A stretch of DNA of 64,000 nt from Escherichia coli (GTDB taxonomy: Bacteria; Pseudomonadota; Gammaproteobacteria; Enterobacterales; Enterobacteriaceae), in NCBI RefSeq assembly GCF_003334405.1, contig NZ_QOWM01000004.1; one strand, given 5' to 3'. Made by a program: the position numbers and the translations under genes. Numbering within the stretch: position 1 is the stretch's first letter; every line of letters begins with the position of its first letter. Positions 7,775-10,730 of this stretch are shown piece after piece. Under the pieces are notes generated by a model. It had not been told where the DNA came from. It saw only the letters and a program-made list of their open reading frames with translations, and did not search any database.

Positions 7775-8731
7775 TCACATCGCCGCTTCATTTTTCGCCC
7801 GTAGCTTCTTCGCCTGGCTTTCCAGCAACAGGTAACAGATCAGCGCCAGCAGCAGTGGGATAAAGTAATACAGCACACGGTAAGCGAGTAGGGCGGCGAT
7901 AATTGTACCTTTGGAGGTATGCTCCCCAGCCAGTAGTGCGATAAACACCGCTTCCAGCACACCGATCCCCGCCGGAATATGCACGATGACGCCAGCAATA
8001 CTACTAACCAGTAACACGCCCAGTACAAAGAAATAGTTCACGCTTTGACCAAGTAACAGCCAGATAATCGCCCCCATTACCATCCAGTTAACGCTGGAAA
8101 TCAGCATCTGAGCGAGGGCGAATTTCCATGAAGGCAGCACCAGCTTTTGCCCTTTGATGGTCATATGGCGGTGCTTCGCGAAAGCGCAAAACCACAAATA
8201 AACCGCGATAATCATCAGTAAGCCAATGCCGAGAATACGCAGCGTAGTTTGATCGACATACCAGTGATCCGGCAACTCCACCACGCCTGCGGTAAAGATA
8301 ATCCCTGCCAGTAAAATGTAGCCCAGCCAGTTGGTGGTAATACTGAGCGAGAAAATCCGCGTAATAGTGCTACCGGGCAACCCCAGACGAGAGTACAAAC
8401 GATAGCGCATACCAATGCCGCCGACCCAGGTACTGAGCGTCAGGTTGAAGGCGTAGCAGATAAACGACACCAGCATCACCTGGCGCTTCGCCAGTTTGTG
8501 ACCGCAGTAAAAGCGGGCGAGCAGGTCATAGCAGCCGTAAATCAGATAGCTGACGACCACCAGCCCGACCGCACTAAGCAGCGCAACGCGATTGTAGTCG
8601 CGGATGACCTTCCAGACCTCTTCCCAGTCCACTTTTTTGGCGTAGACCACCAGCAACACAATCACCGCGATAAAAAACAGCCAGGTGAGGATCTTCTTTG
8701 CTAAGCGCCAGCGCGGGTGTGATTTACTCAT
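7775..8731 (-). CDS. ybhN: Inner membrane protein YbhN (lysyl-phosphatidylglycerol-synthase TM-region-like)
   Basis: ORF 318 aa; start overlaps clsB stop by 1 nt. Confidence 0.9.
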   Translation of the reverse strand: MSKSHPRWRLAKKILTWLFFIAVIVLLVVYAKKVDWEEVWKVIRDYNRVALLSAVGLVVVSYLIYGCYDLLARFYCGHKLAKRQVMLVSFICYAFNLTLSTWVGGIGMRYRLYSRLGLPGSTITRIFSLSITTNWLGYILLAGIIFTAGVVELPDHWYVDQTTLRILGIGLLMIIAVYLWFCAFAKHRHMTIKGQKLVLPSWKFALAQMLISSVNWMVMGAIIWLLLGQSVNYFFVLGVLLVSSIAGVIVHIPAGIGVLEAVFIALLAGEHTSKGTIIAALLAYRVLYYFIPLLLALICYLLLESQAKKLRAKNEAAM

Positions 8732-9972
8732 CAGGGTTTTACCCCCGTGTTTTCAGTTTCTACCCGATCCTGCGTTTCCATTGTCGGTTGTGCGGGCGGA
8801 TCAACCTGCGCCAGACGTGGCGTGTGTGCCGGAAGCCAGCCAACCAGCGCCGGGAAGTGGCGTAAAAAGTGGAACGCCAGCACGCTTTTGGTCAGGTTCC
8901 ACCAGGTGCGTTTGGGCAGCATGGTTTCATCCACCTGCTGACAATCTGCGGCAATAATGCCGTTCAGATTATCGCGCAGCGTCTGGTTAAAATGACGATC
9001 GTGGATGATGACATTTGCTTCGAGATTCAGTGACAAACTGAGCGGATCGAGATTACTGGACCCTACTGTCGCCCAGTGATCGTCCATCAATGCCACTTTG
9101 CCGTGGAGCGGGCGGCGGCGGTACTCAAAAACCTGAACGCCGCCTTTAACCAGATAGTTATACAGCAAGCGCGCACCGACTCTGACAATCGGCATATCCG
9201 GTTCGCCCTGAATGATCAGTTTGATCCGCACCCCGCGCCGTGCCGCTTTACGCAAGGCGTGTAAAAATCGATAGCCGGGGAAGAAGTAGGCGTTGGCGAT
9301 AATCACTTCCCGCCGCGCCTGAGTGAGCATTTTCAAATAATGGCGTTCAATATCATCGCGATGTTCTTCGTTATCGCGCCAGACCAGCAATACCTGCGCT
9401 TCTCCCGGCTGGCGGTTCTCTTCCGCTTTGTGATGACGTCGCCACCAGCGTCGTGCCGCGCTCTGTCCAGGCAGGTTTTCCAGCTCAAACTGGAGAATAT
9501 CTTCGACAATCGGCCCTTCAAGGCGTACCGCGTAATCCTGTTTAGCCTCTGGACCGTAGCTGGACATATGCTCGGCGGAGTAATTCAGCCCGCCAATAAA
9601 GGCTATACGCGCGTCGATCACCACAATTTTGCGATGCATCCGGCGAAACACATTGGTGCGCATACCAAAAAGGCGAGGGCGGGGATCGTAGTAGCGGAAC
9701 ACTACGCCAGCTGCCGTCAGTTCATTGACAAACTCATCGCTGAGATCCGGCGAACCGTAGCCATCCAGCAAGACTTCCGCTTTAACCCCGCGTTGCGCTG
9801 CTGCCAGTAGTGCCGCATGCAGTTGTTTGCCGACGTCATCCTCAAACCAGATAAACGTTTCAAGAATGATGCGTTCTTGTGCCTCGCCAATCGCCTTAAA
9901 CACCGCGGGATAATATTGCTCGCCGTTTTCCAGCAACTGGATCTTATTGCCTTCGCGCCAGCTACATTTCAT
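8731..9972 (-). CDS. clsB: Cardiolipin synthase B (phospholipase D family, two HKD motifs)
   Basis: ORF 413 aa; HRKIVVID… and HGKVALMDD… HKD motifs seen in translation. Confidence 0.93.
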
Positions 9973-10730
9973 AAATGAATCTCCGCACTTAAAGGGGCAT
10001 GATCAGAAAGGTGTCGCCATGTCCGCAGCGGCAACGCGGTTGGCGCGCTGGCGCTGGCATTTTTGACGTAGATCCTGTCCAGTCGTAGTAGAGGAAATTG
10101 CACCGGAAACGTGCGCGCCGGGCGTCCGTGGGCGCGGGTAAAAATCTCATCCAGTCCGGCCTGCACTTTTAACGGATGATTAGCTTTTTGCCGCCAGTCA
10201 TTGAAATCACCCGCCACCAATACCGGTTCGCCGTCCGGTAGCTCATTCACCCATTCGGCGAGCATCGCAAGCTGCGCCTGACGGTGCGCCTCACGCAGGC
10301 CCAGATGTACGCACATCACATGAATCGCTTTTCCGGTCATCGGCGGCACAATGCGGCAGTAGAGCACGCCGCGCTTTTCCGCACCATCGACCGAAACATC
10401 GCGATTCTCATAATGTTCAATGGGATAACGCGACAGTACGGCGTTGCCGTGATGCCCTTCCGGGTATACGGCATTGCGACCGTAGGCAAAATCGCTCCAC
10501 ATAGTGTCGGCGAGAAACTCGTAGTGCGAGGTATCGGGCCAGTTTTCCACATGCAGCGGATGAACTTCGTGCGCGCCCATCACTTCCTGCAGGCAAACAA
10601 TATCGGCGCTGACGGTACGCACGGCGTCGCGAAGTTCCGGCAAAATGAAGCGTCGGTTAAACGCGGTAAAGCCTTTGTGAATATTGATGGTGAGCACCTT
10701 GAACGAAAATTGTTGTGTTTGATCGGGCAT
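9969..10730 (-). CDS. ybhP: Endonuclease/exonuclease/phosphatase-family protein YbhP
   Basis: ORF 253 aa; stop overlaps clsB start (ATGA). Confidence 0.9.

Follow-up and report, generated by a model that had tools for sequence, protein, structure and literature searches.

The 64,000-nucleotide stretch of Escherichia coli DNA analysed here (contig NZ_QOWM01000004.1, hereafter the window) carries on its minus strand the ybhP-clsB-ybhN operon, which encodes a hydrolase of the endonuclease/exonuclease/phosphatase (EEP) fold, a cardiolipin synthase of the phospholipase D (PLD) superfamily and a polytopic membrane protein resembling the flippase domain of MprF. We consider it probable, at about 0.6, that the three products form a single membrane-lipid module; the operon is induced by stationary phase and envelope stress. 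The initial annotation had proposed that these genes form one functional unit, and this is now well supported by the conserved gene order and junctions, by natural YbhP-ClsB fusions and by a published bacterial two-hybrid interaction between YbhN and ClsB (bioRxiv 10.1101/2022.03.11.483950). The comparative results strengthen the case for a unit of all three proteins, the unstudied YbhP included. The genes and their junctions, taken from the open reading frame list and the sequence, are as follows.

9969..10730, minus strand: ybhP coding sequence, 253 amino acids, ATG start, TGA stop; cytoplasmic EEP-fold hydrolase
8731..9972, minus strand: clsB coding sequence, 413 amino acids, ATG start, TGA stop; PLD-superfamily transphosphatidylase (cardiolipin synthase B)
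7775..8731, minus strand: ybhN coding sequence, 318 amino acids, ATG start, TGA stop; polytopic membrane protein consisting of the MprF-type flippase/scramblase domain only (PplT)
9969..9972, minus strand: overlap of the ybhP stop and clsB start codons, ATGA, 4 nucleotides
8729..8733, minus strand: overlap of the clsB stop and ybhN start codons, TGATG, 1 nucleotide
9981..9984, minus strand: Shine-Dalgarno-like GGAG for clsB, within the 3' end of ybhP
8742..8746, minus strand: Shine-Dalgarno-like GGGGG for ybhN, within the 3' end of clsB

This operon belongs to the core genome of E. coli. A 3.2-kb region covering it is found at 95–100% identity in 5423 of 5426 complete E. coli genomes, where ybhM and ybhQ flank it and RefSeq uses the names ybhP, clsB and ybhN. 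The genes and junctions are identical to those of E. coli K-12 (b0790–b0788), with the same neighbours (ybhL, ybhM, ybhQ and ybhRS) and no sequence difference. An IS5-like element lies inside the matched region in one strain, TOE17 (NZ_CP069093.1), and 2 of the 5430 places that match the operon region are plasmid-borne. Both overlaps are present exactly as first annotated. Overlaps of −4 and −1 nucleotides are the most frequent classes of operon junction, and those of the trio are ordinary, not above chance, because at least four other same-strand gene pairs in the window share them: 39416..39883/39880..40998 and 31974..32696/32693..33352 overlap by 4 nucleotides, and 15207..16205/16205..16888 and 50613..51362/51362..52597 by one. 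It is the conservation of the ybhP-clsB-ybhN overlaps, not the overlaps themselves, that exceeds chance.

That conservation was assessed in 80 loci of species-representative genomes. They are the top 80 by score among 547 relatives and were found with a 39-member YbhP alignment; the matches listed in a first homology search with E. coli YbhP were all from Enterobacterales, at 70% identity or more, and gave no distant context. The order ybhP-clsB-ybhN, on one strand, is found in 63 of the 80 YbhP loci, which come from gamma- and betaproteobacteria: 13 of 14 in Enterobacterales, 26 of 28 in Burkholderiales, 21 of 34 in Pseudomonadaceae, two of three in Cellvibrionales and the single locus in Halomonadaceae. 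Among the other loci, three are truncated at a contig end and 14 hold a solo YbhP paralogue. In 55 of the 63 trio loci (Enterobacterales 13/13, Burkholderiales 18/26, Pseudomonadaceae 21/21, Cellvibrionales 2/2, Halomonadaceae 1/1) clsB has available an in-frame, open NTGA start that overlaps the ybhP stop, and the GAG(A/G)T context just 5' of this overlap is itself conserved when junction sequences are compared across loci. At the clsB/ybhN junction, 37 of the 63 show a −1 or −4 overlap, 11 another short overlap and eight a gap of 30 nucleotides or less, the rest being unclear. Conservation of the overlaps in Enterobacteriaceae was the check fixed in advance by the initial annotation, and the Enterobacterales have the −4 overlap at the first junction in 13 of 13 loci and a −1 or −4 overlap at the second in 12 of 13. 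The same trio was reached, through a diverged YbhN, at five further places in Lysobacterales, where the flanking genes differ completely each time; independent gene calls there give 4-nucleotide overlaps at most trio junctions, the ybhP/clsB one in four of the five places (the fifth, L085, has a short gap).

The second line of evidence is the existence of proteins in which YbhP and ClsB are joined. In P0220 (648 residues) the N-terminal half resembles YbhP (42% identity); the half that follows resembles ClsB, with 27% identity to its residues 17–350 (E 1e-34), and the protein ends in a hydrophobic tail. A search with it found P0271 (645 residues, 42% identical), P0272 (710 residues, 30%) and two shorter EEP+PLD proteins. 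P0220, P0271 and P0272 share the EEP+PLD architecture at a mutual identity of 30–42%, and such fused polypeptides thus come from several lineages that are not related. The GDFN motif and the two HKD motifs are intact in each, as is SDH in P0220 and P0271. Because their motifs are intact, they have diverged from one another and their contigs range from 37 to 63% GC (37%, 38% and 63%, respectively), they are real, diverged fusions and not frameshift artefacts. The P0272 gene is directly followed on the same strand by a PF03706 gene (contig L084), a trio with its first two parts fused. Such fusions are rare, each being found on one contig only, and no YbhN fused to a PLD or EEP domain was present among the 120 matches listed for a diverged YbhN query. 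A further EEP+PLD protein, P0033 (389 residues, 84% identical, one contig), is most likely the product of a frameshift that crosses the ATGA junction and was left out of the count. The P0220 contig (L001) contains no ybhN-type gene; a PlsC-type acyltransferase gene (1202–1972) and a fusion of a VTT/DedA domain with a pyridine-nucleotide oxidoreductase (5136–7268) flank the P0220 gene there, DedA proteins being another candidate family of lipid scramblases.

The family assignments of the initial annotation, an EEP fold for YbhP, two HKD motifs for ClsB and an MprF-type flippase domain for YbhN, agree with Pfam and NCBIfam. YbhP matches Pfam PF03372 (Exo_endo_phos) at 3e-23 over model positions 2–225 of 225 and fits the four-layer alpha/beta sandwich of the EEP fold; hydropathy and the translation reveal neither a transmembrane segment nor a hydrophobic, signal-peptide-like N-terminus. 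Across 39 aligned family members (36–63% identity), residues N16, E49, D175, N177, D218, D243 and H244 do not vary, which points to a catalytically intact, metal-dependent phosphoesterase. The family is well defined, with 381 clusters of about 250 residues each at E <= 1e-30 (HMMER, 1.84 billion cluster representatives). Bacterial sphingomyelinase C and neutral sphingomyelinase are EEP-fold lipid phosphodiesterases, and the YbhP family profile matches bacterial sphingomyelinase C and beta-hemolysin at about 1e-7, ahead of TDP2; this ranking lends weak support to a phosphodiesterase other than an AP-endonuclease-type nuclease. The closest characterised folds include TDP2, CNOT6L and ExoIII. We found no functional study of YbhP in the literature; a literature search for the Pseudomonas orthologues under the locus numbers PA2154–PA2156 gave nothing relevant, and statements on Pseudomonas here draw on the loci analysed. 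A NUDIX gene lies directly upstream of an apparently split EEP-PLD fusion (L083:6561-9050, on a 1.38-Mb contig of the Joint Genome Institute, JGI) and P0276 (413 residues) is an EEP+NUDIX fusion protein; these links hint at a nucleotide-diphosphate-linked substrate somewhere in this enzyme neighbourhood.

ClsB scores 751.2 bits over its full length against the ClsB equivalog model NF008427 (cut-off 281), and 207.7 bits, under the cut-off of 290, against the generic bacterial cardiolipin synthase model TIGR04265. It contains two PLDc_2 domains (Pfam), each HKD motif having the form HxKxxxxD.

9613..9636, minus strand: ClsB HKD motif 1, H113-R-K115-IVVI-D120 (residues 113–120)
9082..9105, minus strand: ClsB HKD motif 2, H290-G-K292-VALM-D297 (residues 290–297)

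By hydropathy, ClsB lacks the N-terminal transmembrane helices of ClsA and has no transmembrane segment at all, since no 19-residue window reaches 1.6 (maximum 1.16), and the E. coli protein has been described as devoid of such segments and located at the cytoplasmic face (PMC12846801). No solved structural relative was found at E <= 1e-5. In vitro, ClsB makes cardiolipin from phosphatidylglycerol (PG), and PG from phosphatidylethanolamine (PE) and glycerol (PMC8027125). In Salmonella, the H290A allele of the orthologue is catalytically inert, and the cloned “whole clsB operon” restored and overproduced cardiolipin (PMC9241728). Cardiolipin made by ClsB and that made by ClsC behave differently, for which leaflet distribution has been proposed as a cause (PLoS Genetics, PMC11226057).

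YbhN has multiple hydrophobic segments by hydropathy and matches Pfam PF03706 (LPG_synthase_TM) at 4.6e-15. Against the MprF profile NF033480 it aligns to positions 3–301 of 841 (4e-48), with 164 bits compared with a full-length cut-off of 600, and its residues 15–310 align to the N-terminal transmembrane domain of solved MprF structures (PDB 9goe, 9j8q, 7f47 and 6lvf; E 3e-22 to 2e-17). Because only the first ~300 of the 841 MprF positions are covered, YbhN corresponds to a stand-alone flippase/scramblase domain and lacks the aminoacyl-PG synthase domain. To our knowledge, this domain is the only well-established phospholipid flippase/scramblase domain of bacteria. MprF proteins translocate lipids, that of P. 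aeruginosa being a promiscuous scramblase (PMC11980842), and by analogy YbhN may be a lipid translocator. The protein has been renamed PplT in a preprint that depicts this operon in Escherichia, Shigella, Klebsiella and Pantoea and reports a mild growth defect of the ybhN deletion at 37 °C (bioRxiv 10.1101/2022.03.11.483950).

The published expression data and our scans agree with a single stress-induced transcription unit. An inhibitor of LolCDE induces ybhP, clsB and ybhN 17.6-, 12.3- and 4.4-fold, respectively (PMC5105897). Sodium fluoride induces the operon, listed as “ybhP-cslB-ybhN”, under the control of guanosine tetraphosphate (ppGpp; PMC10100675). ybhPO is RpoS-dependent, with values of 251 (ybhP) and 7 (ybhO) in the RpoS table (PMC2907692), a chromatin immunoprecipitation peak of Salmonella sigma-E lies in the ybhP-ybhQ spacer (PMC4577112), and clsB rises ~9-fold in late stationary phase (PMC12846801). 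A consensus scan of positions 7500–11000 found no minus-strand sigma-70-like promoter. Terminator-like sites were no more numerous than in shuffled sequence (five on both strands, against a mean of 4.2), the three on the minus strand all lying inside genes. The “obligate co-expression” read from the overlaps in the initial annotation is nevertheless too strong, as each gene has its own ribosome-binding site and induction falls along the operon.

In the mechanism that we propose, the stop/start overlaps, of the ordinary operon kind, would keep the translation of the three proteins coupled. ClsB, having no transmembrane segment, would dock on YbhN at the cytoplasmic face of the inner membrane. 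There it would take a phosphatidyl group off PE or PG and attach it to the hydroxyl of an acceptor, with cardiolipin as the product when the acceptor is PG, PG when it is glycerol, and phosphatidyltrehalose and diphosphatidyltrehalose when it is trehalose. YbhN would then scramble or flip the product, with its bulky head group, to the periplasmic leaflet, a step suggested by the logic of MprF, where a local concentration built up by the attached enzyme sets the substrate preference (PMC11980842). The contribution of YbhP to this pathway would be the hydrolysis of a phosphoester. Its target would most likely be a substrate or product of ClsB, cut at a phosphodiester or at the head-group phosphate, and this cleavage could pull or trim an exchange reaction that is otherwise reversible.

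Two known systems resemble this arrangement. In MprF, a lipid-modifying enzyme at the cytoplasmic face is joined physically to the PF03706 domain responsible for moving its modified lipid outward, and the domains also function when split into two proteins. The enzyme of the operon differs in being a separate PLD-type transphosphatidylase instead of a tRNA-dependent aminoacyl transferase. The coupling is by operon and the reported two-hybrid contact, not by fusion, with flipping by YbhN presumed by analogy, and the third component, the EEP hydrolase, has no counterpart in MprF. The ymdB-clsC pair, which is induced in stationary phase, likewise places a paralogous cardiolipin synthase devoid of transmembrane segments downstream of a small soluble protein of hydrolase fold, and the co-cloned upstream gene raises ClsC activity (PMC8027125). 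YmdB, however, is a macrodomain protein, there is no flippase-like third gene, and ClsC uses PE and PG.

Several observations weigh against a single module. The 80 loci are no unbiased sample, and in high-GC genomes the start codons were inferred, the criterion of an in-frame, open overlapping start registering its availability and not its use. YbhP occurs in 14 of the 80 loci as a solo paralogue, without ClsB or YbhN, and in P. fluorescens clsB is said not to be in an operon (preprint), which conflicts with the loci analysed here. YbhN is also two-hybrid-positive with PgpA, PgpB and PgpC, so that its contact with ClsB may be unspecific, and thin-layer chromatography of the ybhN deletion gave the wild-type pattern, with only PE and PG resolved (bioRxiv 10.1101/2022.03.11.483950). 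On this chromatogram, and because the substrate of YbhP is not inferable, the “head-group remodelling” of the initial annotation is not shown. In addition, clsB alone, from an arabinose promoter, complemented trehalose-phospholipid synthesis in a mutant lacking clsB, with chromosomal ybhP and ybhN presumably present (PMC6446866).

The cardiolipin reaction itself raises a further difficulty. Cardiolipin synthesis from two PG molecules releases glycerol. The textbook reaction therefore leaves no phosphoester for YbhP, whose role does not follow from it, and this is the main ground for suspecting that what the unit uses or makes in the cell may be more than cardiolipin alone. Of the three cardiolipin synthases of E. 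coli, ClsB is the one least understood; its loss scarcely alters cardiolipin, and in vitro it exchanges head groups promiscuously. It is absolutely required, genetically, for 6-phosphatidyltrehalose (PT) and 6,6'-diphosphatidyltrehalose (diPT) in Salmonella, where its loss leaves cardiolipin unchanged (PMC6446866). Four of six E. coli strains with identical clsB, BW25113 among them, make PT and diPT, and therefore factors beyond clsB must be needed, “other interacting proteins” in the words of that study (PMC6446866). These trehalose phospholipids activate the innate receptor Mincle, with “unknown additional requirements”.

The operon could thus encode a dedicated trehalose-phospholipid machine, in which ClsB would phosphatidylate cytoplasmic trehalose, a product of RpoS or osmotic stress, at its 6-OH and YbhN would export the bulky glycophospholipid. 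YbhP would supply the “additional requirement”; it might, for instance, act on a trehalose-phosphate head group or recycle PT to diacylglycerol and trehalose-6-phosphate. This is unlikely on present evidence, and it has points in its favour beyond the strains with identical clsB that differ in PT and diPT. The operon is co-induced with otsBA and treF in shared stress regulons (PMC10100675, PMC2907692), and in two lineages the trio has trehalose or alpha-glucan genes beside it. In P. yangonensis (L078) the order is TreY-GlgX-(alcohol dehydrogenase)-YbhP-ClsB-YbhN, followed by a convergent gene for the glycogen phosphorylase GlgP. In Stutzerimonas xanthomarina (L042), GlgX precedes, with other genes between, DUF72-YbhP-ClsB-YbhN, and convergent genes for GlgB and TreS/Pep2 (maltokinase) follow, and the trio of Cellvibrio (L064) has GlgX on its upstream side. 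Curated NCBIfam cut-offs are exceeded in these three loci by GlgX, GlgB and the TreS-type maltokinase domain, whereas TreY and GlgP are strong matches under their equivalog cut-offs, TreY being cut by the locus end and GlgP passing a subfamily model only. Luteimonas sp. R10 (L085:8244-9851) and a related metagenome contig (L086:7787-9445) have a trehalase gene (PF01204) at a distance of one to two genes from the trio; none lies beside the trio in three other Lysobacterales genomes. Moreover, 12 of the 14 solo YbhP paralogues sit between treY-glgX and glgB-treS/pep2 in Pseudomonas of the P. fluorescens group (L059, L060, L065–L067, L069, L070, L072–L074, L076 and L077).

The association of the trio with trehalose genes is thus recurrent but sporadic, and it is at most suggestive, though compatible with the reported link between ClsB and trehalose lipids. 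Such neighbours occur at only six of ~69 trio loci, Enterobacterales, Burkholderiales and the window having none, and the Pseudomonas and Cellvibrio cases may trace to one ancestral arrangement. P. aeruginosa, Bordetella and Shigella carry a clsB orthologue and have no detectable diPT (PMC6446866). The cloned Salmonella operon overproduces cardiolipin (PMC9241728), and deletion of clsB halves cardiolipin under salt in P. fluorescens (preprint). A stricter form, to which we give little credence, holds that YbhP, ClsB and YbhN form an obligate machine of three parts and that its true product is not cardiolipin but a phosphatidyl-sugar lipid, for example PT or diPT, YbhP being the catalytic partner that handles a sugar-phosphate or phosphatidyl-sugar intermediate and YbhN the dedicated exporter. 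If true, it would explain why the sequence of clsB alone fails to predict Mincle-stimulating lipids. Doubtful as it is, the dedicated trehalose-phospholipid machine is the most interesting reading still standing.

The three proteins could also be independent neighbours, with ClsB a minor stationary-phase cardiolipin synthase, YbhN a general scramblase of bulk phospholipid, YbhP a nuclease or nucleotide phosphodiesterase unrelated to lipids and the overlaps mere compact packing. The commonness of −4 and −1 junctions, several more of which occur in the window, would fit this explanation, as would the contacts of YbhN with the Pgp proteins, the older annotation of YbhP as “predicted DNase” (PMC2907692), the fold relatives TDP2, CNOT6L and ExoIII and the solo paralogues. 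We nevertheless judge it quite improbable, because order and strand are kept in 63 of 80 loci and at the five Lysobacterales places despite wholly different flanks, and because three strongly diverged fusions have intact motifs in both halves, one of them followed by ybhN; a fusion of unrelated functions would be unlikely to recur and persist. YbhP might instead be a non-catalytic helper that stabilises or activates ClsB, as YmdB raises ClsC levels: clsC clones that include the adjoining ymdB give more ClsC by an unexplained mechanism (PMC8027125), and YbhP is always upstream of ClsB and sometimes fused to it. This is very improbable, given that all canonical EEP metal-binding and catalytic residues are invariant and that GDFN is kept in all three fusions and SDH in two of them; a purely structural role is not expected of a protein whose active site is invariant across its family. 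Finally, an anti-phage defence system of EEP nuclease, PLD nuclease and membrane effector, for which both folds include nucleases and ClsB weakly matches DISARM DrmC (1e-18 in PADLOC; 1e-20 in NCBIfam, below cut-off), was rejected as next to impossible: YbhP and YbhN have no PADLOC match, the DrmC matches (~65 bits, against 751 for the ClsB equivalog) stem from the PLD domain common to both, the locus, unlike mobile defence islands, belongs to the core genome and occupies a single chromosomal site in 5423 of 5426 E. coli genomes, and the lipid activities of ClsB have been demonstrated (PMC9241728, PMC8027125).

The locus is not novel, because the operon, its induction by RpoS, ppGpp and envelope stress and the YbhN-ClsB two-hybrid contact were already published, and the 2022 preprint had put forward a lipid unit of ClsB and YbhN, an idea taken up again in PMC11980842, which leaves the YbhP part alone unexplored. 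Published accounts of the K-12 operon do not discuss what YbhP does, how widely the overlaps are conserved, the fusions or the nearby trehalose genes. What is new here is the conservation of order and overlaps, the YbhP-ClsB fusions and the trehalose and alpha-glucan neighbours; they sharpen the hypothesis, whose locus and main idea remain those of the literature. If the three proteins are one unit, the operon would be a tractable model of how the synthesis of an unusual lipid is coupled to its crossing of the inner membrane, and YbhP would be the obvious candidate for the missing trehalose-phospholipid factor.

Upstream of the operon, in the spacer between ybhQ and ybhP, an alignment of 13 Enterobacterales upstream regions shows three blocks that are conserved across Escherichia, Citrobacter, Enterobacter, Pantoea, Erwinia and Mangrovibacter.

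10766..10772, minus strand: CTACACT, candidate sigma-S-type −10 element, nearly invariant in 12 of the 13 regions
10778..10787, minus strand: TTTTTGTGAC, conserved block just upstream of the −10-like element
10799..10812, minus strand: ACGGAAAATTCCGT, perfect palindrome, candidate regulator-binding site

We infer a promoter role for the first block, in keeping with the reported RpoS dependence of ybhPO (PMC2907692), and an operator role for the palindrome.

At the other end of the operon, ybhN (minus strand) and ybhM (plus strand) converge, with stop codons 35 nucleotides apart (window positions 7739–7775) and no detectable intrinsic hairpin terminator in this spacer. Inside ybhN, an antisense RNA has been reported that H-NS represses and that a Rho-dependent RNA aptamer brings to an end (PMC6847712). 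Beside the operon lie two adjoining genes for membrane proteins of the Bax-inhibitor-1/YccA family, ybhL and ybhM (6117–6821 and 7026–7739), and genes of this type (cluster C18) stay next to ybhN in several Enterobacterales loci.

Outside the Enterobacterales, the trio shows several variations. In 15 Pseudomonas and Cellvibrio loci (L021, L022, L024, L026, L027, L030, L035, L036, L042, L043, L053, L054, L061, L064 and L075) a DUF72/YecE-like gene lies immediately 5' of ybhP, making a four-gene unit; in the mapped loci it overlaps ybhP by 4 nucleotides (e.g. L053:5036-5962), and the best NCBIfam match of its product is a weak one to PRK10302. The solo YbhP paralogues are often flanked by a PIG-L-like deacetylase gene and an autotransporter gene, and at least five genomes with such a paralogue have the full trio elsewhere. 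The clsB-ybhN pair is tandemly duplicated after ybhP in Cellvibrio (L064:6747-11311), and a Ramlibacter metagenome-assembled genome contains two tandem copies of ybhN (L062:8105-9987).

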